31,778 bases of DNA from Candidatus Peribacterales bacterium (GTDB lineage Bacteria; Patescibacteriota; Gracilibacteria; Peribacterales; Peribacteraceae). This document shows, piece after piece, positions 18,386-30,621 of the stretch (positions within the stretch are counted from its first letter, which is position 1; each line of letters starts with the position of its first letter). The stretch lies in NCBI GenBank assembly GCA_021731345.1, contig JAKFXO010000030.1, positions 1-31,778 on the forward strand, given 5' to 3'. The position numbers and the translations under genes were made by a program. The notes under the pieces are model-generated. The model searched no databases. It saw only the letters and a list, made by a program, of their open reading frames with translations, and was not told where the DNA came from.

Positions 18386-20830
18386 ATGTCCTCTTCAGAA
18401 CAGCGTTCATCCTTCTGGCCAATCGTCACTGCAGTCGTAGTGGCTCTCTGTGTGATCATCGCGATCCCAGACCAGTACAAAACGTTCCTGCCAAGCTTCC
18501 TCAAGCCAGGTCTTCACCTCGGTCTTGACCTCGCAGGCGGCACCCAACTGGATTTCCGCATTTCAGAAGATGAGATCATCAGCCGCCGAGCAGAAATTGC
18601 CGCTGAGATCGATACACTGAAGAAGAACGGTGGAGAGAATCAGGCAATCGTCAGCAAGCAGGTAGAACTTCAGGCACTCGACGAGCAGCACGCCAACTTA
18701 GTGGAAGCCATTCGTGGCGTCCTTGAGCGCCGCGTGAACTCACTCGGAGTCAGCGAAGCAACCATCACTCCGTCATACTTTGGTCCAGAGAAACACCTTC
18801 TCGTAGAGTGCCCTGGTGTCATCGATGTGAACCGCTGTATCGCAACTGTTGGAAAAACGATTCAGCTCGAATTTAAGGAAGAATACACAGAAACCCCAGT
18901 CGGATACGAAGCTGGCATCCGCGCTCAGGCTGACAAAGTCTTTAAGGCCATCGCTACGGGTACAGGAAACTTGCAAGTCTACGGACAGGACCTCAGTAAC
19001 CAGCTCGGCGTTTCGTACTTCGATAGCCGCGAACTCTTCGTCTCACAACTTCCAAAAGGAATGGAAGTACTCGCAAACCGCACTCCAGAGGATCCAGTCA
19101 TCAAGAACGAAGCAAGCATTCAGACCGTTGGCCAAGACGAGCAGGGTCAGCAGCAAGTGCAAGAGATTAAAGGAATTTACATCACGAAAGTACTGACACC
19201 GAAGAAATCAGTCCCACGCCCGTTGTCTGATCCGCATGAGGCTTTCCAAGAAATTGCCAAGACAACGCCAAATTCTTCTACGGAGTCCAAGAGCGCAGTA
19301 CTTATCGACTCCGCTCCAAAGGAAATTCAGACCACGCTTCGCACGATGGCTATCGGTAGCCAGGAAACAGTCAGTATCAATGGCGAGCAGAGCGCTATTG
19401 TCTATCTCGCAGGACGCATCGATGGTAGCCAAGAGATGACCGCGAGCCACATCCTGATTCAGTACAAAGGTGCTGAACGTGCAGAGGCATCGGTTGTTCG
19501 TTCTCAGGCACAGGCTAAGAGTTACGCTGATGAACTGAAGAAGCGTCTTGATGGCGGTGCCAACTTCAGCGACATCGCACGCACAGATTCTGATGGCCCA
19601 TCAAAGGCTTCGGCAGGTTCTATCGGCGTTATCCGCCCAGGAGTCATGCCAGCTGCCTTTGAAACCGCAGCATTCGCGCTCAAGCAAGGTCAGATCAGTT
19701 CTGTCGTTGAGACTCCATTTGGTTATCACATCATTCGCGCTGACAAAGCAGTCGTCACGACTAGTGCAAAAGTCACGTACGACCTTCTTCGTTTGAAGAT
19801 GGACACGACAGCAGCAAAAGCTGTAGCTGACACAATTGAAAAAGGAGAAATCACGAGGAATGAAGACCAGGTCACTATTCGTGGTCTCTTCTTCTCTCTC
19901 GAGCCTACTGGCTGGAAAGACACAGAGCTCAATGGTCAGCGTTTCCGCACAGCAAGCGTCACAGTTGACCCAGTCAGCAACGTCCCTGTCGTCCAAATCC
20001 AGTTTGACGAGAAGGGCGGCAAACTTTTCCAGGAACTCACGAAGCGCAACATCGGTAAGAGCATCGCAATCTTCGTTGGTGGTGAACTCGTCTCTGCTCC
20101 TACGGTTCAAAATGAGATCGCTGGTGGCAATGCTGTCATCACGGGAAGCCGCAGCTTCGAGGAAGCTCGTACACTCGCTCAGGACCTCAACACCGGTGCA
20201 ATTCCTGCGCCAATTTACCTCTCAGGCCAGAGCACAGTCGAAGCAACGCTCGGCGCTACAGCACTGAATCAATCAATCTTTGCTGCGATGATCGGTTTTG
20301 CAGTTCTCTGCGTGATTCTTATCATTATTTATCGTGCACTCGGTGTTGTGGCAATTCTTGCACTCATGACATACGTCGTGCTTCTTATCGCAAGTACGAA
20401 ACTCCCGATTCTTTTGATCTCGAATCAGTACGTTGTCCTGACGCTTGCGGGTATCGCAGGCATCATCCTCAGCATGGGAATGGCTGTGGATGCAAACGTT
20501 CTTGCATTCGAGCGCATTAAAGAAGAGCTAGCAAAAGGAAAGACTCTCAAGACCGCTGTTGAAACTGGCTTTAAAAAGGCATGGCCAAGCGTTCGTGACG
20601 GTAACTTCTCTACGCTGATCACGTGTGCAATCTTGTTCAGTATTGGCACAAGCATCATTCGCGGATTTGCCGTGACGCTCAGCATTGGTATTTTTATCTC
20701 GCTCTTCACAGGAATCATCGTCTCTCGCTGGTTCTGCCGTCTCATTGCTTCGTCTCCTCTCGCCAATCGCCCAGAACTCTTCGGCGTGAAAGTCGACAAG
20801 CCAGTCGAGCCACAGACGCCAAGCGTGTAA
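18386..20830 (+). CDS. secD: Protein translocase subunit SecD with inserted parvulin (PpiC-type) PPIase domain(s)
   Basis: LHLGLDLAGGT, LERRVNSLGVSE, AIFVGGELVSAPTV, LNTGAIP, GMAVDANVLAFERIKEE, IRGFAVTL. The insertion contains ASHILI...NFSDIA...FETAAFAL...ETPFGYHIIR. Confidence 0.93.
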   Translation: MSSSEQRSSFWPIVTAVVVALCVIIAIPDQYKTFLPSFLKPGLHLGLDLAGGTQLDFRISEDEIISRRAEIAAEIDTLKKNGGENQAIVSKQVELQALDEQHANLVEAIRGVLERRVNSLGVSEATITPSYFGPEKHLLVECPGVIDVNRCIATVGKTIQLEFKEEYTETPVGYEAGIRAQADKVFKAIATGTGNLQVYGQDLSNQLGVSYFDSRELFVSQLPKGMEVLANRTPEDPVIKNEASIQTVGQDEQGQQQVQEIKGIYITKVLTPKKSVPRPLSDPHEAFQEIAKTTPNSSTESKSAVLIDSAPKEIQTTLRTMAIGSQETVSINGEQSAIVYLAGRIDGSQEMTASHILIQYKGAERAEASVVRSQAQAKSYADELKKRLDGGANFSDIARTDSDGPSKASAGSIGVIRPGVMPAAFETAAFALKQGQISSVVETPFGYHIIRADKAVVTTSAKVTYDLLRLKMDTTAAKAVADTIEKGEITRNEDQVTIRGLFFSLEPTGWKDTELNGQRFRTASVTVDPVSNVPVVQIQFDEKGGKLFQELTKRNIGKSIAIFVGGELVSAPTVQNEIAGGNAVITGSRSFEEARTLAQDLNTGAIPAPIYLSGQSTVEATLGATALNQSIFAAMIGFAVLCVILIIIYRALGVVAILALMTYVVLLIASTKLPILLISNQYVVLTLAGIAGIILSMGMAVDANVLAFERIKEELAKGKTLKTAVETGFKKAWPSVRDGNFSTLITCAILFSIGTSIIRGFAVTLSIGIFISLFTGIIVSRWFCRLIASSPLANRPELFGVKVDKPVEPQTPSV

Positions 20831-22265: not shown

Positions 22266-23006
22266 TTACGCTGCAAGGACTTTTTCCGCATCTGGCACCT
22301 GCTCGCCAAGTTTCTGGCGAATCGACGCGATCATAATGCTGTCATGAAGCTGATCGAAGCCTGCGTTCGTATCCCCTGCTTCATCGACCATCTTGTCACC
22401 ATCCATACCCTGAGCGTTGAGATACGTCGCAATGCTCTCCGATGACTCGACGTACTCGTGATACTCAGGCGTGTGATCCTTGAGCCCGCCCTCGGCCTTC
22501 ACGGCGCCATTCTCACGCAGAGCCCTGCGCGACAACTTGCTGATCTCGTCGATCTTTGGGTCTCCTGTCGGAGGTAGATCAACGTACTGATCACCAACCT
22601 CCTGCTCGCGATGCTTGGCCTCGTGCTTGGCAACGCGATCAGAGTCGAGCGCACGTCCTGCAATGCCAATCTTGCGTGTGTCATCGTGCTGCAGGCCTAC
22701 CACAGTGCCATCACTTGGCAGCACGTAGGCATCCGGCGCTGCAGCGATGTTTTTCATGCGCTCGTCATGCTCTTTGTCAGCGGCTTCAATGATTTCTTCT
22801 TCCATATCGGGTGCTACCGTTTGATCAGAGTTCTGAGGTTTAAAGAGTTCGGCAATTTTCTCACGCTGCACATCTTTCACCTCGCTGACTTTCAGTTTTT
22901 TTTGAGCCGCCTCCTCGAGTGCTAGCTCGCGAGTCTGGTCGAGCGTCCGCTTCACAATCTCTTTCGTGTCGAGAGCTGCCGATGATGTGGAGTTGATGCG
23001 ATCCAT
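22266..23006 (-). CDS. Hypothetical protein with HExxH motif (putative zincin)
   Basis: VAKHEAKHREQE followed about 30 aa later by LRENGA. Probable start is ATG 23006 (MDRINS). Confidence 0.7.
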   Translation of the reverse strand: MDRINSTSSAALDTKEIVKRTLDQTRELALEEAAQKKLKVSEVKDVQREKIAELFKPQNSDQTVAPDMEEEIIEAADKEHDERMKNIAAAPDAYVLPSDGTVVGLQHDDTRKIGIAGRALDSDRVAKHEAKHREQEVGDQYVDLPPTGDPKIDEISKLSRRALRENGAVKAEGGLKDHTPEYHEYVESSESIATYLNAQGMDGDKMVDEAGDTNAGFDQLHDSIMIASIRQKLGEQVPDAEKVLAA

Positions 23007-23118
23007 GTAAGCACCATTGTCGTCATATCCAGGTGAAGCGATACGAAAGAGAAAACCGAAGTGCCACGACACGTCGAAAACGAGTCTGGAAGCTACTTAC
23101 TCCGATGAGTCGAAGTGC

Positions 23119-24678
23119 CTACTTTTTAGACTGACCGTTCTTTCCGTTTTTTCCGACTGCTTGTTTCTCGAGCATTTTGTACACCGTAAGCTTCGTCATC
23201 GGTTGCTTATCTTGTCCGCTGTGTCCGTTTTTAGAATTGCGCGCGTCTTTTTTTACTTTACCCTTCCAAATTTTGTCGATATTCACACGGTACATATTGT
23301 GATATTTCTCAAGCTCATCAGGACCAGCCATCTTCAGAACGTCGAGCTCTGGAGCAAACATTTCTGAGTAACGGTCACGACGACGAATGAGCTTCGCTGA
23401 ACCGTCTGGATACAACATGATCATGCCGGGACGACGAATCGTATTGAAGTTACTCGACATCACCTGCGCGTACGCACCCACGTCCATAGCGGCCAAAAGG
23501 TCACCCTGACGCAGTTTTGGCATTTCGATGTTACGACGGATGATATCCCAACAGTCACAGGTGTTACCGGCGATGTTGACCGTATGAATACGGCGCTCGT
23601 TCATCTTGGACGCAGGCAAAATATCGTAGTGCACACCGGGCTGGATGAGCGCATCCGGAATAAAGTTGTATGTGGAACCATCCGCAATGACCATGCGTGA
23701 GTTCACACCCAAGCGCTTCTTACTAATAACTTTCATAAGGCCAATGCCTGCATTCATGACGATGCTCTTACCGGGCTCGAAGATAAGCTGGAGCGGCGGA
23801 ATGTTGTAGCGGTGCATGAGTCCCTGGAAGTACTTCGGGAAATCCTTCATACGCTCGATCGGGAATGCCTCCTCTTCTCCGATAGCAGCAGGGAAACCTC
23901 CGCCAAGTGACAAGCTCTGCACGCGGATGCCTTTGTCCAAGCAGCTGCGAATCAGCTTTGCGAACGTTCGCGCAGCCATCTTGAAGACCTTCGGGTTGTA
24001 GACGTAGCCACCCATGAAGTGGAAACCTTTGAAGTCGACATACGGGCTTTTGCGAGCCATATCCACGGCATGCTCGGCGTATTTAATGGGAATGCCGTAC
24101 TTGTTTCCTTTTGTGGAGTACTGACCAAACTCGATCATTGGGTTCACCCGAATAACAGTATCGATGTGCTTACGAAGTTTCTTCGCGGTCGCAGCAATGT
24201 GCTCGATTTCCTCAAGAGAGTCAGCCGTGATTGACTGCACACCGATCTTGATAGCGAAGTGAATGTCCTGCTCAGTCTTAAAGAGGTTCGTGAACGTCAG
24301 CTGCTTGGGCTTAAAGTCGGCAAGCAGACCAAGAATGAGCTCTCCAACGGACGAACAGTCCAATTCGAAGCCTTCCTCACGCACCATGCGGAGGATTTCA
24401 AGGTTACTGTTGCACTTCACGGCGTACTGCAGAGCGATGTCGGTACCAAAAACTTTTTTAAATCTCCTGAGACGTGAACGAATTTCACTATCAACAAGAA
24501 CATACAGTGCTGTGCCGTACTTCTCCACGATCTTATCAATCGGCACGCCTTCAATAAGCATCATTCCTTTTGTGTCCTGGCTCACGAAACGTTCCCAGCG
24601 CGGTCGCATATAGCGAGAGCTCACCTTGTGAGGTCTGACTTGCTTGAATTTGAAGTGGCCCGTTGGGCGCTTAGGCAT
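23119..24678 (-). CDS. Alanine-racemase-fold (group IV) PLP-dependent basic amino acid decarboxylase; candidate arginine decarboxylase
   Basis: YAVKCN, LDCSSVGE, IRVNP, KYG, LGGGF, EPGK, GNTCDCWD, DVGAY...SNFN. Located in a polyamine cluster. The fold call is strong; the substrate is inference. Confidence 0.85.
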   Translation of the reverse strand: MPKRPTGHFKFKQVRPHKVSSRYMRPRWERFVSQDTKGMMLIEGVPIDKIVEKYGTALYVLVDSEIRSRLRRFKKVFGTDIALQYAVKCNSNLEILRMVREEGFELDCSSVGELILGLLADFKPKQLTFTNLFKTEQDIHFAIKIGVQSITADSLEEIEHIAATAKKLRKHIDTVIRVNPMIEFGQYSTKGNKYGIPIKYAEHAVDMARKSPYVDFKGFHFMGGYVYNPKVFKMAARTFAKLIRSCLDKGIRVQSLSLGGGFPAAIGEEEAFPIERMKDFPKYFQGLMHRYNIPPLQLIFEPGKSIVMNAGIGLMKVISKKRLGVNSRMVIADGSTYNFIPDALIQPGVHYDILPASKMNERRIHTVNIAGNTCDCWDIIRRNIEMPKLRQGDLLAAMDVGAYAQVMSSNFNTIRRPGMIMLYPDGSAKLIRRRDRYSEMFAPELDVLKMAGPDELEKYHNMYRVNIDKIWKGKVKKDARNSKNGHSGQDKQPMTKLTVYKMLEKQAVGKNGKNGQSKK

Positions 24679-24703: not shown

Positions 24704-24709
24704 ATTATA
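24704..24709 (-). promoter_or_regulatory. -10 box for the decarboxylase gene
   Basis: Perfect TATAAT on the minus strand, 25 nt upstream of ATG 24678. A 10-bp palindrome TCAGCGCTGA lies at 24711-24720. Confidence 0.55.
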
Positions 24710-24753
24710 GTCAGCGCTGATCACGTGTAAAGAAGAATTCTTCGTCACGATTT

Positions 24754-26085
24754 TTATCTGCCGATGAAAGTCTCGTGCAAAATATGAAGCGCGCGTTCGG
24801 TATCGTTCTCATCAACGACGAAAGTCATACTCACTCCGCCTGCTGCTTGCGAGATCATCTCAACCGGAATTTCGTGCTGACCAAGAACCGTAAAGATACG
24901 TCCTGCGACTCCTGCAGCGTTAATACTGCCTCCTACCATGCAGATGATGGCTTTGCCGGATACGACTTTCACTTCACCCAGTGAACTCAGATCATGAACA
25001 ATGCCATCCAAATTTTCACAGTCATCAATCGTGAGAGAGATACTCACAACAGACGTCGCAATGAGATCGATGCTCGTGCGGTATTTTTCAAAAATCTTGA
25101 AGACATTCGCCATGAGACCACTGCCATCAAAGAATTCGGGTGAGCGAACATGGATGACCGTGATCCCCTTTTTTCGAGAAAATGCTTCCACAGTCTTACT
25201 CTTACCGTGACGCTCTTCGAAGCTGCTCACGATGGTCGTGCCTTTGCCCTCCGGCTTAAACGTATTAAGAATCTGCACGGGCACACCGGCTTCCATGGCG
25301 GGAAGAATAGTCTTTGGATGCAGCACCTTCGCGCCGAAGTATGCGAGTTCACAGGCTTCTTCGAACGCAAGTTCGTGAACCACCTTAGCTTCTGGGACGA
25401 TACGAGGGTCAGTCGTCATGAAACCATCAACCTCTTTCCAAATTTGAATGGCCTCAGCCTTGAGCGCAGCGCCAACGATAGCTGCCGTGTAATCCGATCC
25501 TCCGCGTCCGAGTGTCACGATCTCACCTTTCTCGGTCTTACCGATAAATCCGGTCATGACCGGCACAGTTTTTAGTGCCGTGATCTTTTTCTTCATGAGC
25601 GCGAACGATGATGGAAGTGGCTCAGCGTCTCCAAAGACTGCATTCGTTATCATGCCAAGTTCCCAAGCTGGATATGCGCGAGATGGAACACCGATCTTTG
25701 CGAGTTGTCCTGCAACAATGGTCGATGACAGGCGCTCGCCGAATGACTGAAAGAGATCAAGCGACTTCTTCGTGAGCTTTCCTTTCTTTCGGCGCGTGAG
25801 TTTCATAAGTGCCTCAAGTTCCCCAAACTGTTTTGCACACAAAGAAGGAGAAAGTTTCAGATCCTGCAAAATGTCTGCGTGCCTTCCGTGCAAGCTCTGA
25901 AAGATGTCCGCGCCCCCGCCCTCCGCAGCAGCATGCGCCAAGCGAATGAGCGTATCGGTGACTCCGGATACGGCCGACACAACAACAACCGGCTTCCTCT
26001 TCTTATACATCTTCACGATAGCAGCGACTTCGGAGATCGCTTTCGCGCTTCCGACTGACGTGCCACCAAACTTCATAACGATCAT
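24754..26085 (-). CDS. lysC: Aspartate kinase with two ACT domains
   Basis: MKFGGTSVG, VVVSAVSGVTD, SFGERLSS, TLGRGGSDYTA, KEVDGFMTTDPRIVP, YFGAKVLHP, C-terminal ACT repeats. Confidence 0.95.
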   Translation of the reverse strand: MIVMKFGGTSVGSAKAISEVAAIVKMYKKRKPVVVVSAVSGVTDTLIRLAHAAAEGGGADIFQSLHGRHADILQDLKLSPSLCAKQFGELEALMKLTRRKKGKLTKKSLDLFQSFGERLSSTIVAGQLAKIGVPSRAYPAWELGMITNAVFGDAEPLPSSFALMKKKITALKTVPVMTGFIGKTEKGEIVTLGRGGSDYTAAIVGAALKAEAIQIWKEVDGFMTTDPRIVPEAKVVHELAFEEACELAYFGAKVLHPKTILPAMEAGVPVQILNTFKPEGKGTTIVSSFEERHGKSKTVEAFSRKKGITVIHVRSPEFFDGSGLMANVFKIFEKYRTSIDLIATSVVSISLTIDDCENLDGIVHDLSSLGEVKVVSGKAIICMVGGSINAAGVAGRIFTVLGQHEIPVEMISQAAGGVSMTFVVDENDTERALHILHETFIGR

Positions 26086-26188
26086 AGTACGAAGTAGTGT
26101 GCCGATACATGACGCGGATGCAAGAGCGTCCGAGAAAAATCATGAACGGATTTCATGTAGCCATGCAAGATTTCTGTATACTTTGCGC

Positions 26189-27271
26189 ATGAAAAACTCC
26201 CACGAAAAACGCCGCGTCGGCATCCTCGGAGCCACCGGCATGGTCGGTCAGCAATACATCTCGCTTCTTGAAGGTCATCCGTGGTTCACGGTCACGCACA
26301 TGGTCGCAAGTCCGTCCTCGGCAGGTAAGACCTATGCAGAGGCAGTAGAAGGACGCTGGCACATGAACGGTTCAGTGCCGAAGGACGTACAGAAGCTCGT
26401 CGTTCATACGGTCGATGACCTCAAGGCAGTCGCGAAGAACTGTGACTTCGTGTTCTCAGCGCTCGATTCTGACATCGCCAAAGAGTGGGAAGAGAAATAC
26501 GCAGCAGCAGGCATCCCCGTTGTCTCTAATGCATCGACACACCGCATGACGCCAGATGTTCCGATGATCATCCCTGAAGTGAACCCTGAGCATCTCGAGA
26601 TGATTACAATTCAGCAAAAGAACCGCGGATGGGACAAAGGCTTCATCGTCGTAAAGCCGAACTGCTCTATCCAGAGCTACGTTGCTCCCCTTGCGACCTT
26701 GCACAAGAAATTCAAGATCAAGAGCGTTGTCGTCACCACGATGCAGGCCATCTCTGGTGCTGGGCATCCGGGCGTCGCATCGCTCGATATTTTGGAGAAC
26801 GTCGTACCGCTCATTAAAGGAGAGGAGGAGAAGTCTGAATTAGAACCTCGCAAAATCTTCGGCTCGATCAAAGGAGATAAAATCGTGCATGACGAATCAT
26901 TCACGATTTCCGCACACTGCAACCGCGTTCCGACCATCGACGGTCACATGGCGTGCGTGTCATTTAGCTGTGAGAAGAAGCCAACAGAAAAAGAGATCCT
27001 CGCTGCATGGAAAGATTTTAAAGGCCCGCCACAAGAGCTAAGTCTCCCATTTGCGCCGGTGCAGGCCATTACGTACCTCACGGAACCAAACCGTCCGCAG
27101 CCTCGTATCGACAGAAATCGGGATAAAGGCATGACGGTGACAGTAGGAAGGCTGAGGGAAGACCCTGTGTTCCAGTGGAAATTCGTTGGACTCTCTCACA
27201 ATACGATCCGCGGAGCGGCAGGCGGCGGTATTCTCATCGCCGAATTGCTGAAAGCAAAGTCGTATGTATAA
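26189..27271 (+). CDS. asd: Aspartate-semialdehyde dehydrogenase (archaeal/fungal-like branch)
   Basis: GILGATGMVGQ, LEGHPWF, PNCS, TMQAISGAG, HCNRVP, HNTIRGAAGG. Start at ATG 26189, 6 nt after TATACT. Confidence 0.95.
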   Translation: MKNSHEKRRVGILGATGMVGQQYISLLEGHPWFTVTHMVASPSSAGKTYAEAVEGRWHMNGSVPKDVQKLVVHTVDDLKAVAKNCDFVFSALDSDIAKEWEEKYAAAGIPVVSNASTHRMTPDVPMIIPEVNPEHLEMITIQQKNRGWDKGFIVVKPNCSIQSYVAPLATLHKKFKIKSVVVTTMQAISGAGHPGVASLDILENVVPLIKGEEEKSELEPRKIFGSIKGDKIVHDESFTISAHCNRVPTIDGHMACVSFSCEKKPTEKEILAAWKDFKGPPQELSLPFAPVQAITYLTEPNRPQPRIDRNRDKGMTVTVGRLREDPVFQWKFVGLSHNTIRGAAGGGILIAELLKAKSYV

Positions 27272-27280
27272 TTTTCGCAT

Positions 27281-28513
27281 ATGACTAAAGGAACCATCCT
27301 CATCATCGGCGCCGGCGGAGTCGGCTCAGTTGCCGCACACAAGTGCGCTATGAACAAAGACGTCTTCACCAAGATTCACTTGGCGAGCCGCAGTCTGGCA
27401 AAACCAGACGCTATCAAGAAAGACATTAAGAAGCGCTGGGGAGTAAATATTACAACGCACAGCGTCGATGCCGATAAGACGAAACAGGTAATCGCTCTCA
27501 TTAAAAAAGTGAAACCGTACCTCGTGCTCAACCTTGCGTTGCCGTACCAGGATCTCACGATCATGGACGCGTGTCTGGCAACCAAGACGCACTACATGGA
27601 CACCGCCAACTACGAGCCAATCGACAAAGCTGAGTTTGAGTACAGCTGGCAGTGGGCATATAAGAAGAGGTTTAAGGATGCAGGAATTATGGCTGTGCTC
27701 GGCGCTGGATTTGACCCAGGTGTCACCAACGCATACTGCGCATTCCTGCTCAAGAAATATTTCGACACGGTAAAGCATGTCGACATCTTGGATGCCAACG
27801 CCGGTAACCACGGCAAAGCGTTCGCCACAAACTTCAACCCGGAGATCAACATCCGCGAGGTGACACAGGTCGTGAAGCACTGGAACAAGGGCAAGTGGGT
27901 GAAGACGCCTGCCATCCTCGATCAAACAAGCATCCACTTCGACTTCGATTATCCGCAAATCGGTCCAAAAGACAGCTACCTCCTCTACCATGAGGAGCTT
28001 GAGTCTCTTGCCAAGAACCTCCCAGGCCTTGAGCGCATCCGCTTCTGGATGACATTCTCCCAGAACTACATCACGCACCTGCGCGTCATGCAAAACATTG
28101 GCATCACCCGCATCGACGAAGTGGAATACGACGGTAAGAAGATCGTTCCGATCAAATTCTTGAAGGCCCTTCTTCCGAATCCAGCGTCACTTGCCACCAA
28201 GTACACGGGCAAGACAAACATCGGTTGTATCGTGACCGGAAAGAAAGACGACAAAGAGTTCACGAAGTACATCTACAACGTCTGTGACCACGCTGAGTGC
28301 TTCAAGGAAGTCGGCTCTCAGGCAATCTCGTACACCACAGGTGTGCCGGCCATGGCTGCGGCCATGATGCTGATGCAGGGCACATGGACGGGTAAGGGTG
28401 TATTTAACATCGAGCAGCTTGATCCTGAGCCTTTCTTGAACGTTGTGGCCAAGAACGGTCTGCCGTTCAAAGTCGTCGACCACGATCCTCTCCCCGATTC
28501 CCTCACTCCATGA
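27281..28513 (+). CDS. Carboxy(nor)spermidine dehydrogenase (CASDH; saccharopine dehydrogenase family)
   Basis: IIGAGGVG, LALPYQDLTIMDAC, YMDTANYEP, GAGFDPGVT, FATNFNPEINIRE, SQAISYTTGVPA. ATGA overlap with nspC. Confidence 0.92.
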   Translation: MTKGTILIIGAGGVGSVAAHKCAMNKDVFTKIHLASRSLAKPDAIKKDIKKRWGVNITTHSVDADKTKQVIALIKKVKPYLVLNLALPYQDLTIMDACLATKTHYMDTANYEPIDKAEFEYSWQWAYKKRFKDAGIMAVLGAGFDPGVTNAYCAFLLKKYFDTVKHVDILDANAGNHGKAFATNFNPEINIREVTQVVKHWNKGKWVKTPAILDQTSIHFDFDYPQIGPKDSYLLYHEELESLAKNLPGLERIRFWMTFSQNYITHLRVMQNIGITRIDEVEYDGKKIVPIKFLKALLPNPASLATKYTGKTNIGCIVTGKKDDKEFTKYIYNVCDHAECFKEVGSQAISYTTGVPAMAAAMMLMQGTWTGKGVFNIEQLDPEPFLNVVAKNGLPFKVVDHDPLPDSLTP

Positions 28514-29709
28514 GCACGGAGGAAACGTTCGAGCCTTCATGGGAACGCGACCGCGAAGGATTTTTCGCACAGCTCGACTACTCAAAGGTCACCACACCCG
28601 CGTACATCTTTCATGAAGGTGCGCTCGAGGAAAATTTGAAGATCCTTGCACATGTAAAGAAGGAGGCCAGCTGCACCATCCTCCTTGCGCTGAAGGGCTA
28701 CGGCACGTGGAAAACATTTCCGCTGGTGAAGAAGTATCTGGACGGTGTGTGCGCCAGCTCGGTGAACGAAGCGAAGCTCGGTCGTGAAGAATTCGGCAAG
28801 CAGGTCCATAGCTACGCACCAGTGTTCAGTGATCGTGATATCGACGAGCAGGTTCTCTACGCCGATCACATTGTCTTCAACTCGCCGACTCAGTGGATCA
28901 AATACCGCGACTACGTGAAAAAGAAAAATCCGAAGATTCATTGTGGCATCCGCATCAACCCCGAGTCCGCCGGTGCGGGAAACGACCTCTATAACCCCTG
29001 CGCCAAAGGCTCACGCATGGGAAGCACGCTGAAGGAATGTGAAAAACACCCCGGTATTCTGGAAGCCGCAGATGGACTGCACTTTCACGCCCTCTGCGAG
29101 CAAAGTGCGGATGATTTGGAAGAAGCCCTGAAACAGGTTGAGAAGAAGTTCGGCAAGTACCTGAAAGGCAAAAAGTGGATCAATTTCGGTGGTGGTCATC
29201 ACATCACACGCAAAGGATATGACACCAAGAAGCTCATCGCGCTCGTCCGTGACTTCCAAAAGAAGTACGAGACGAATGTCATACTAGAACCCGGTGAAGC
29301 CGTGGGTCTGAATGCAGGCGTACTCGTAGCAAGCGTGCTCGATATCATCGAGAACAACGGAAAAATCGCGATGCTGGATACAACCGCAGAAGCACACATG
29401 CCAGATGTCCTCGGCATGCCCTACAGGCCTTCAATCATCGGTACAGGAAAACCTGAGGAAAAGAAGTATGACTATATGATGGGTGGCATTACGTGTCTCT
29501 CCGGTGACTTTATCGGCAAACACTCGTTTGACCATGAACTGAAGCCCGGCGACAAAGTTGTGTTCCAAAACATGGCCATCTATACGACGGTGAAGAACAC
29601 GACGTTCAACGGCGTGCGACTTCCCGATATCATCATCATGGATCAGAACAACAAGATCGTGCACACCAAGAAGTTCGGCTACGAAGATTTCAAGAATCGG
29701 CTGTCGTAG
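28510..29709 (+). CDS. nspC: Carboxy(nor)spermidine decarboxylase
   Basis: TPAY, LLALKG, RINP, YNPC..GSRMG, GLHFHALCEQ, NFGGGHHIT, LEPGEA, HMPDVL.MPYRP, TCLSGD, YTTVKNTTFNG. Confidence 0.95.
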   Translation: MSTEETFEPSWERDREGFFAQLDYSKVTTPAYIFHEGALEENLKILAHVKKEASCTILLALKGYGTWKTFPLVKKYLDGVCASSVNEAKLGREEFGKQVHSYAPVFSDRDIDEQVLYADHIVFNSPTQWIKYRDYVKKKNPKIHCGIRINPESAGAGNDLYNPCAKGSRMGSTLKECEKHPGILEAADGLHFHALCEQSADDLEEALKQVEKKFGKYLKGKKWINFGGGHHITRKGYDTKKLIALVRDFQKKYETNVILEPGEAVGLNAGVLVASVLDIIENNGKIAMLDTTAEAHMPDVLGMPYRPSIIGTGKPEEKKYDYMMGGITCLSGDFIGKHSFDHELKPGDKVVFQNMAIYTTVKNTTFNGVRLPDIIIMDQNNKIVHTKKFGYEDFKNRLS

Positions 29710-29748: not shown

Positions 29749-30621
29749 ATGGATCAAAACCTCGTCACTCTCGGCCTCGTCCAAATGTCGATGACAAGCG
29801 ACAAGGATGAAAATCTCAAAAAAGCTGTCGTCATGACGGAGGAAGCAGCAAATAAAGGCGCCAAGATCGTCATTCTTCCGGAGCTCTTTGCAGGTCCGTA
29901 CTTCTGCATTGTCCCAAAAAATACAGAGGCGCTAAAAATGGCAGAAAGCATCCCAGGTACTGTCAGCAGCGCACTTTCAGCGCTCGCAAAAAGACTGAAA
30001 ATTGTGCTGATTGGAGGATCAATCTATGAAGAAGCAGACGGAAAGAGGTACAACACCTCCTGCATCTTCGGACCCGACGGCAAAACGATCGGAACCTACA
30101 GAAAAGCGCATATCCCGCATGATCCGGGTTTCTATGAGCAGGACTACTTCGGCAGTGGCAATGAAGTCATCAAGGTACATGACACTCCGTTTGGCAAAAT
30201 CGCCGTCGGTATTTGCTATGACCAGTGGTTCCCAGAGTTCGCACGTCTCGCAACGCTGGCTGGAGCAGCGCTCATCGTGTATCCCACCGCCATTGGAGAT
30301 AATCCAACAGTCGCTCCGGCTGATCCGAAGGTGAAAGAGAACTGGGAACAGATGTGGCGGGCAGCGCAGGTTGGCCACAGCGCAAGCAACTCTGTCTACG
30401 TCGCTGCCGTGAACCGTGTTGGTGACGAAGGTGCGACGCACTTCTTTGGTGGCTCTTTCGTCTCAGACCCGAATGCGACGCTTCTTGTGAAGGGTGACGA
30501 TACTGAGAAGGTACTGATCGCTGAGATCGATATGTCGTATCCGAAAAAAGTACAAGAATCCTGGAGATTTTTACTCGAGCGCCGACCAGATTTGTACGGC
30601 GGTATTACCAAGACATCATGA
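29749..30621 (+). CDS. aguB: N-carbamoylputrescine amidohydrolase (carbon-nitrogen hydrolase)
   Basis: Glu-Lys-Cys triad in LPELF, YRKAHIP and ICYDQWFPE; YPTAIG; ATGA overlap with aguA. Confidence 0.88.
   Translation: MDQNLVTLGLVQMSMTSDKDENLKKAVVMTEEAANKGAKIVILPELFAGPYFCIVPKNTEALKMAESIPGTVSSALSALAKRLKIVLIGGSIYEEADGKRYNTSCIFGPDGKTIGTYRKAHIPHDPGFYEQDYFGSGNEVIKVHDTPFGKIAVGICYDQWFPEFARLATLAGAALIVYPTAIGDNPTVAPADPKVKENWEQMWRAAQVGHSASNSVYVAAVNRVGDEGATHFFGGSFVSDPNATLLVKGDDTEKVLIAEIDMSYPKKVQESWRFLLERRPDLYGGITKTS

Follow-up and report, generated by a model that had tools for sequence, protein, structure and literature searches.

A candidate arginine decarboxylase of separate origin in Peribacteraceae, with polyamine modules that change around it

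The window analyzed here is a stretch of 31,778 nucleotides from a Candidatus Peribacterales genome (contig JAKFXO010000030.1). Its minus strand carries a gene for a decarboxylase dependent on pyridoxal 5′-phosphate (PLP) and of the alanine-racemase (AR) fold, which we call P0001. From its residues and its gene context, we consider it probable, at roughly 0.7, that P0001 is an arginine decarboxylase (ADC) of independent origin, shared with some archaea. A fuller account, to which we commit ourselves with somewhat less assurance, is that a new ADC arose from a branch resembling diaminopimelate decarboxylase (DAPDC) and is now present in Peribacteraceae and in uncultured archaea, probably by gene transfer. 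It would act there as a fixed generator of agmatine around which SpeY-like, carboxyspermidine, and homospermidine synthase (HSS)/agmatinase modules are swapped, most of its members being without the PLP-stacking histidine. We computed the fold, the pattern of residues and how far it is conserved, and the phyletic and neighborhood pattern, and searched for alternative enzymes, which were not found.

Active site, fold, and phylogeny of the decarboxylase

The gene and its motifs are as follows.

23119-24678, minus strand: AR-fold PLP decarboxylase P0001, candidate ADC; 519-amino-acid open reading frame (ORF) with an ATG start (Pfam, NCBIfam, and AlphaFold2 [AF2])
24409-24426, minus strand: YAVKCN, residues 85-90, with Schiff-base Lys88; from the translation, K88 being invariant in 121 homologues
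24007-24027, minus strand: GFHFMGG, residues 218-224, with Met222 at the PLP-stacking His site and one residue deleted after it; from alignment to M. jannaschii DAPDC
23893-23910, minus strand: SLGGGF, residues 257-262, the glycine loop for the PLP phosphate; GGG invariant in the family
23767-23778, minus strand: EPGK, residues 301-304, replacing EPGR; K304 invariant in the family
23644-23685, minus strand: specificity-helix segment ADGSTYNFIPDALI, with Pro341-Asp342 for the Arg-Pro of DAPDC and Ile345 for Tyr; from alignments and AF2
23545-23568, minus strand: GNTCDCWD, residues 371-378, with catalytic Cys374, then Asp375 (not Glu), and Trp377; C374, D375, and W377 invariant in 121 homologues

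P0001 matches the Pfam domains Orn_Arg_deC_N (PF02784; 130.6 bits) and Orn_DAP_Arg_deC (PF00278; 56.4 bits), both above the cut-offs. These two domains and the invariant K88, G259-261, E301, and C374 place it in the group IV AR-fold decarboxylases; the stacking His of that group (HxHxGS) is Met222 here. Among NCBIfam models, the best match is lysA (TIGR01048) at 281.4 bits, under the curated equivalog cut-off of 297.9, while a canonical DAPDC representative (P0131) scores 461 bits on the same model. The SpeA model NF003763 matches part of the N-domain at 25 bits (cut-off 369), the SpeA profile TIGR01273 gives no match to P0001, and no SpeA-type insert was seen in an alignment with E. coli SpeA (658 amino acids, with a long insert). 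We therefore rejected membership in SpeA at 25 bits. The model for DokD, a D-ornithine/D-lysine decarboxylase, reaches 152 bits (cut-off 700). All of the motifs quoted in the original prediction (YAVKCN, GFHFMGG, SLGGGF, EPGK, and GNTCD) are present in the translated ORF, and its remark that the length and insertion of SpeA are missing holds at 519 amino acids. The neighboring carboxy(nor)spermidine decarboxylase NspC, cited there for comparison, does have the stacking His, reading GLHFHALCE.

We compared a family set of 121 homologues of P0001 (62 to 100% identity) with an outside set, the 136 nearest non-family cluster representatives, which are DAPDC-like. Schiff-base Lys88, the Gly loop, Glu301, catalytic Cys374, and Tyr403 are retained and invariant throughout the family, and so are K304, D333, D342, D375, and W377. 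The residue after the catalytic Cys is Glu in 129/136 outside representatives and in E. coli LysA, and it is Asp in the family, which bears out the contrast drawn earlier between Cys-Asp here and Cys-Glu in DAPDC. Residue 377 is Gly, Ser, Ala, or Thr in 127/136 and Trp in the family; the Arg of EPGR is present in 134/136, where the family has EPGK. The specificity helix has Arg in 131/136 of the outside set, followed by Pro in 116, at the place of Pro341-Asp342, and the helix Tyr that comes next (129/136 outside) is Ile, Val, or Leu in the family. We take the EPGR Arg and the helix Tyr to be substrate-signature residues of DAPDC; a literature search on their roles gave nothing relevant.

The Met, Ser, and Lys substitutions had been proposed as marks of divergence. 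Against the outside set they are real, since His stands at position 222 in 135/136 and Asp or Asn precedes GGG in 134/136. The Met and the Ser do not define the family, however: position 222 is Met in 98, Phe in 13, and His in 10 of the 121 members, and position 257 is Ser in 106 and Asp in 15. The members that bear His and Asp are the more distant ones, and two archaeal relatives, P0122 and P0126, likewise keep both residues. Because of this, Met-for-His and Ser-for-Asp are late changes within the family; the features that define the clade are EPGK, Cys-Asp, and the Pro-Asp helix.

In M. jannaschii DAPDC, R343 binds the carboxylate of meso-DAP, and ornithine decarboxylase (ODC), ADC, and carboxyspermidine decarboxylase have Asp on that helix (PMC7857480). 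The AF2 model of P0001 has a short helix at residues 342-345. We infer as follows what the enzyme acts on, what it makes, and what each residue of the pocket does. The enzyme is presumably a homodimer like its relatives, in which Lys88 would carry PLP and Cys374 would be the catalytic cysteine. The residues with which DAPDC grips the distal carboxylate and amine of meso-DAP would be replaced by an acidic pocket, consisting of Asp342 on the specificity helix, Asp375 beside the cysteine, Asp378, and the invariant Trp377, and such a pocket would fit a cationic guanidinium side chain. The agmatine produced would go to whichever downstream module the genome carries.

Structural modeling, which the original prediction had proposed as a check, gave a confidently predicted fold. 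The AF2 model, built from a 40-sequence alignment, has a mean pLDDT of 86.9 and a pTM of 0.82. Its confident part spans residues 5-445, and it shows the Lys-rich C-terminal tail as disordered; both the N- and C-terminal tails are basic. By this model, the alanine-racemase fold is intact. In a Foldseek search, DAPDC structures rank first (TM-score 0.85 to 0.93, normalized to the target), followed by D-Orn/D-Lys decarboxylase and BtrK and then by lysine/ornithine decarboxylase (L/ODC) and the chlorella-virus ADC. Sequence matches in the PDB reach an E value of 1e-47 for DAPDC and 1e-17 to 1e-24 for structures of the ODC clade, with no SpeA-type structure among the matches at E 1e-5.

The family stands apart in a 50%-identity library: P0122 (55% identity) scores 538 bits and P0126 (37%) 306 bits, and generic DAPDC-like proteins follow at about 200 bits. 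A maximum-likelihood tree joins the family, P0122, and P0126 in one clade with SH-aLRT support of 98 to 100, placed among sequences without the DAPDC signature and outside the canonical DAPDC groups. When the 41 DAPDC-signature sequences were constrained to stay together, apart from the other 20 rows, the resulting tree was not rejected and beat the free search (p-AU 0.84). Both trees agree with the earlier expectation that the protein does not nest among canonical LysA sequences. The deeper placement of the clade is uncertain because the named anchors are few (E. coli LysA, E. coli SpeA, and the NspC of the window) and two of them, SpeA and NspC, sit on very long branches.

The two archaeal relatives are found at these loci.

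L031, 8001-10447: archaeal locus of P0122
L030, 8001-9332: archaeal locus of P0126

The contig of P0122 has genes of archaeal type. P0122 overlaps a gene for deoxyhypusine synthase (DHS; TIGR00321, 308.6 bits, above the cut-off), and an agmatinase gene that also exceeds its cut-off (194.6 bits) is found about 1 kb away. P0126 stands among the archaeal information-processing genes TBP, MCM, and eIF-1A, and no polyamine gene was seen near it. Both carry EPGK and no DAPDC signature. Since they nevertheless pass the lysA cut-off (312 bits for P0122 and 301 bits for P0126), they are probably misannotated as lysA in public databases.

Co-occurrence with agmatine-using genes and exchange of modules

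Comparative genomics is the strongest line of evidence for an arginine decarboxylase. The source genome (1.17 Mb in 141 contigs, rated 88% complete) encodes two AR-fold decarboxylases, P0001 and NspC. No homologue of SpeA, of pyruvoyl PdaD, of aspartate aminotransferase (AAT)-fold decarboxylases, or of SpeD was found above the cut-off in this 88%-complete genome, and neither dapA nor dapF was found in it. Because these two genes were not found, a DAPDC would be without substrate in this organism. The original prediction had weighed the possibility of a canonical speA elsewhere; neither that gene nor any other known type of ADC turned up in the 88%-complete genome. Named homologues of P0001 come from Candidatus Peribacteraceae / Peregrinibacteria, in the candidate phyla radiation (CPR). 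The expectation that such a gene would be annotated automatically as lysA is true of JGI, where the homologues are named diaminopimelate decarboxylase, but not of NCBI, where the close ones are named "hypothetical protein."

We then considered 36 genomes of the same family together with the source genome, 37 in all. Orthologues of the decarboxylase occur in 20/37, at 63 to 99% identity and across many genera, and within a phylum-wide sample of 250 genomes they occur in the family Peribacteraceae only. AguA is present in 14/20 genomes with the decarboxylase versus 0/17 without it, and a divergent DHS/SpeY-like gene is present in 12/20 versus 0/17. Two of the 37 genomes have a canonical DHS of more than 300 bits (G021 and G029), both without the decarboxylase, and five have a true NspC (G000, G003, G005, G006, and G013). 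No dapF was found in the 37 genomes, and dapA was found in one, G020, which is without the decarboxylase and has its own LysA-like gene adjoining dapA. Of the 20 decarboxylase-bearing genomes, a single one (G010) has PdaD and three (G023, G030, and G036) have SpeD homologues, so that these alternatives are present in only 4/20; an AAT-fold decarboxylase was not found above the cut-off in 41 genomes. The claim that this enzyme supplies agmatine to aguA and aguB gains support from the distribution, with the decarboxylase as the candidate source: across genera it is the constant partner of AguA/AguB, of the DHS/SpeY-like protein, or of agmatinase.

The neighboring polyamine genes in the window are these.

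24754-26085, minus strand: aspartate kinase (AK) with ACT domains (Pfam, NCBIfam); same strand as the decarboxylase and upstream of it
26189-27271, plus strand: aspartate-semialdehyde dehydrogenase (Asd; Pfam, NCBIfam); likely start ATG 26189, not 25904
27281-28513, plus strand: carboxy(nor)spermidine dehydrogenase (CASDH) homologue with Sacchrp_dh domains; carsnrspmd_synth, 413 bits against a cut-off of 800
28510-29709, plus strand: carboxy(nor)spermidine decarboxylase NspC; TIGR01047, 487 bits, above the cut-off of 409
29749-30621, plus strand: N-carbamoylputrescine amidase homologue AguB; CN_hydrolase; TIGR03381, 265 bits
30618-31664, plus strand: agmatine deiminase/iminohydrolase homologue AguA; PAD_porph, 379 bits; TIGR03380, 277 bits

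The genes for Asd, CASDH, NspC, AguB, and AguA lie on the strand opposite to AK and the decarboxylase and diverge from them. This carboxyspermidine module, in which AK / Asd-CASDH-NspC-AguB-AguA are linked to the decarboxylase, is seen in the window, in G003, and in G005. In the DHS/SpeY-like module (G001, G009, G010, G016, and G028), the decarboxylase adjoins a DHS-family gene followed by AguB and AguA, and these loci are without AK, Asd, CASDH, and NspC; a DHS-family gene also adjoins the decarboxylase in G014, G032, and G036. The HSS/agmatinase module of G030 consists of a SpeD-like gene, an HSS-like gene, the decarboxylase, and agmatinase. All three module types need agmatine or a guanidino intermediate derived from it. 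In the window, agmatine would be converted by AguA/AguB together with Asd-CASDH-NspC into spermidine, via putrescine and carboxyspermidine or via carboxyaminopropylagmatine. The CASDH homologue could instead be a carboxyaminopropylagmatine dehydrogenase, AguA/AguB then acting on aminopropylagmatine.

Comparison with G001, a genome of the window's genus, shows that the module downstream was replaced around a fixed decarboxylase: the decarboxylases are 92% identical, but AguA is only 44% and AguB 55% identical. The linkage of the decarboxylase to AK is not conserved among relatives and occurs only where the CASDH module is present. Since G005, of the same genus, keeps the order AK, DHS-like, decarboxylase, the adjacency of AK and decarboxylase in the window looks recent, the result of loss of the DHS-like gene.

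The G005 locus (L033, contig C12, 1-9700) holds both modules, with AguA-AguB-NspC-CASDH-Asd on one strand and AK, DHS-like, and decarboxylase on the other. It looks like an intermediate in a swap between homospermidine-type and spermidine-type clusters.

The G030 cluster (L020, contig C1, 5637-10614) encodes a SpeD-like protein of 207 amino acids, an HSS-like protein of the saccharopine-dehydrogenase family (495 amino acids, no NCBIfam match), the decarboxylase, and the agmatinase, which scores 173.8 bits against the agmatinase cut-off of 174.3. A SpeD-derived ODC adjoining HSS has been described from one Peribacteria genome (Li et al., JBC 2023, PMC10407285), and the left half of the G030 cluster, SpeD-like and HSS-like, matches that arrangement. 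The cluster possibly holds two routes to putrescine beside one candidate homospermidine synthase. A FemAB-family gene is located near this cluster (L020, 11642-12754); it hints at Lys-type peptidoglycan with interpeptide bridges, fitting a cell without a need for DAP.

Other features of the window

The gap of 75 bp between AK and the decarboxylase contains one further feature.

24704-24731, minus strand: promoter-like site TTTACA, 16 nt, TATAAT (consensus match, 11/12)

In a promoter and terminator scan of the region, the overall site count was not above chance. The longest ORF for Asd (25904-27271, plus strand) overlaps the AK gene by 182 nt, and homology starts near its residue 101; with a start at 26189, the two divergent genes are about 100 bp apart.

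Directly downstream of the decarboxylase lies an acidic ORF of 268 amino acids (22266-23072, minus strand) with no Pfam or NCBIfam family. It is kept at the same position in G005 (58% identity), and in several other genera an ORF of 200 to 290 amino acids lies between the decarboxylase and folE. Elsewhere in the window, a SecD of 814 amino acids (18386-20830, plus strand) has a PpiC-type peptidyl-prolyl isomerase (rotamase) domain at residues ~347-455, between the first periplasmic domain of SecD and the P1 head. Related genomes keep a SecD homologue of the same length at 56 to 79% identity.

Known arginine decarboxylases, alternative readings, and significance

Arginine decarboxylase is a standard case of repeated enzyme invention, with origins in SpeA, ODC, the AAT fold, PdaD, and SpeD. 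Li et al. (JBC 2026, PMC13625781) treat SpeA in its long and short forms, ODC-derived and SpeD-derived enzymes, and PdaD, and mention neither diaminopimelate decarboxylase nor candidate phyla. In their account, SpeY joins two agmatine molecules to form bis(guanidino)homospermidine; pathways with SpeY require an arginine decarboxylase and have as partners agmatinase or homologues of agmatine iminohydrolase (AIH) and N-carbamoylputrescine amidohydrolase (NCPAH), and AR-fold ODC homologues in SpeY- or agmatinase-linked clusters were assayed as arginine decarboxylases (PMC13625781). These ODC-derived ADCs (PBCV-1 A207R and those of Ca. Fonsibacter, Rhodothalassium, and Rhodophila) share with P0001 the short AR fold, the lack of a SpeA insert, Cys-Asp, and clustering with SpeY, agmatinase, or AIH/NCPAH, and they were themselves predicted from context and then confirmed by assay. 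They stem from the ODC clade, however, and because P0001 matches ODC-clade structures far more weakly than DAPDC, by the E values given above, its origin would be separate from theirs.

With SpeA, in the long form as well as the short "ancestral" AR-fold form, P0001 shares the proposed reaction, the cofactor, the fold superfamily, and Cys-Asp, but it scores poorly on the SpeA models and is without the four-helix insert. LysA (M. jannaschii 1TUF/1TWI and A. aeolicus 2P3E) is the best match by sequence and by structure and has the same two-domain AR fold, core length, Schiff-base Lys, Gly loop, and catalytic Cys. P0001 differs from it in the replaced helix Arg-Pro, Tyr, EPGR Arg, and Cys-Glu, in a score under the lysA cut-off, in its basic tails, in the loss of the stacking His from most of the family, and in an organism where no DAP pathway was seen. 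DokD, the second-best structural class, is likewise DAPDC-related and switched to basic amino acids, but its model score is far from the cut-off and its gene context is another. In the literature we searched, which left subscription journals outside coverage, there were papers on related cases of neofunctionalization, but there was no prior description of this decarboxylase family or of an ADC origin from a DAPDC-like branch.

Could P0001 be a true diaminopimelate decarboxylase after all? Its best NCBIfam and PDB matches are DAPDC, JGI annotates its homologues as such, and the gene lies downstream of aspartate kinase, AK-LysA fusions being a named family. We reject this as extremely improbable: P0001 scores under the equivalog cut-off; each of four residues found in 129 to 134 of the 136 DAPDC-like neighbors (the Arg and the Tyr of the helix, the Arg of EPGR, and the Glu that follows Cys) is replaced; dapA and dapF were not found in the source genome, and dapF was found in 0/37 relatives; and the AK linkage exists only with the CASDH module, G005 having AK, SpeY-like, and decarboxylase in that order. 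An ornithine decarboxylase, or a broader Orn/Lys decarboxylase, would make putrescine directly, and agmatine for AguA, the SpeY-like protein, or agmatinase would come from outside the cell. Cys-Asp and the helix Asp are common to ODC, L/ODC, and ADC and do not separate Orn from Arg (PMC7857480), CPR bacteria rely on hosts for many metabolites, and G023 and G025 carry the decarboxylase without a known agmatine consumer (G023 has a SpeD homologue only). Yet AguA/AguB or agmatinase, which are the tightest and most conserved neighbors, would then be pointless; G030 already has, by its HSS-like gene, a SpeD-type gene like the one that was found to encode an ODC in a Peribacteria genome (PMC10407285); and ODC-like enzymes from the same kinds of cluster were assayed as ADCs (PMC13625781). 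Taken together, this makes ornithine an unlikely substrate.

It seems quite doubtful to us that P0001 acts on some other substrate or on one of unusual stereochemistry, for instance D-arginine or a further guanidino or basic amino acid. DAPDC itself acts on a D-centre, and the closest structures after DAPDC are D-Orn/D-Lys decarboxylases, crystallized with D-arginine and with agmatine. But we see neither an arginine racemase nor any other supply of D-Arg, the DokD model score is low, and FigC, SbnH, and BtrK, of the DAPDC-related clade, use L-substrates (PMC7857480). A literature search on D-Lys and D-Arg decarboxylases gave nothing of use here. It is also very unlikely that the loss of the stacking His has left P0001 a paralogue with impaired catalysis or a regulatory role, in the manner of antizyme inhibitor. 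That His is Met or Phe in 111/121 members, but there is no variation in the Schiff-base Lys, the Gly loop, the catalytic Cys, Glu301, or Tyr403, the high identity is kept across many genera, and apart from NspC this is the sole AR-fold decarboxylase in these genomes.

Several observations weigh against arginine decarboxylase activity. The substrate of P0001 is deduced from context and residues only, and its nearest characterized relatives, DAPDC and D-Orn/D-Lys decarboxylase, act on D-centres, so either L-Arg or D-Arg may be used. The PLP-stacking His is missing in most family members, which could reduce or alter activity. G025, which is rated 100% complete, has the decarboxylase but no AguA, DHS-like protein, arginase-family protein, SpeD homologue, or NspC; in G023, the SpeD homologue is the sole other gene among the polyamine-related ones sought. 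No informative Pfam match was found among the neighbors of the decarboxylase in G025, G023, and G015. The DHS-like proteins of Peribacteraceae (L015 7856-9043, L033 6974-8065, and equivalents) are extremely divergent and score 55 to 67 bits on the DHS, homospermidine-biosynthesis, and G44G-synthase models, whose cut-offs are 300 to 500 (450 to 500 for characterized SpeY), and a role for this partner as a G44G synthase is weakly indicated by its sequence. The tree is without ODC-clade or short "ancestral ADC" reference sequences. Finally, with a genome that is 88% complete and in 141 contigs, "not found" does not equal absence.

If P0001 is an arginine decarboxylase, it would add one more origin to this activity. 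Reduced CPR genomes without the DAP-pathway genes that we sought would still keep a complete polyamine synthesis from arginine. Annotation would be corrected for the homologues named diaminopimelate decarboxylase in JGI or hypothetical protein in NCBI and for the archaeal relatives that score above the lysA cut-off. The family would also offer a natural test of the importance of the PLP-stacking His, and the swapping of modules around a fixed decarboxylase gives a view of how polyamine pathways are reassembled.

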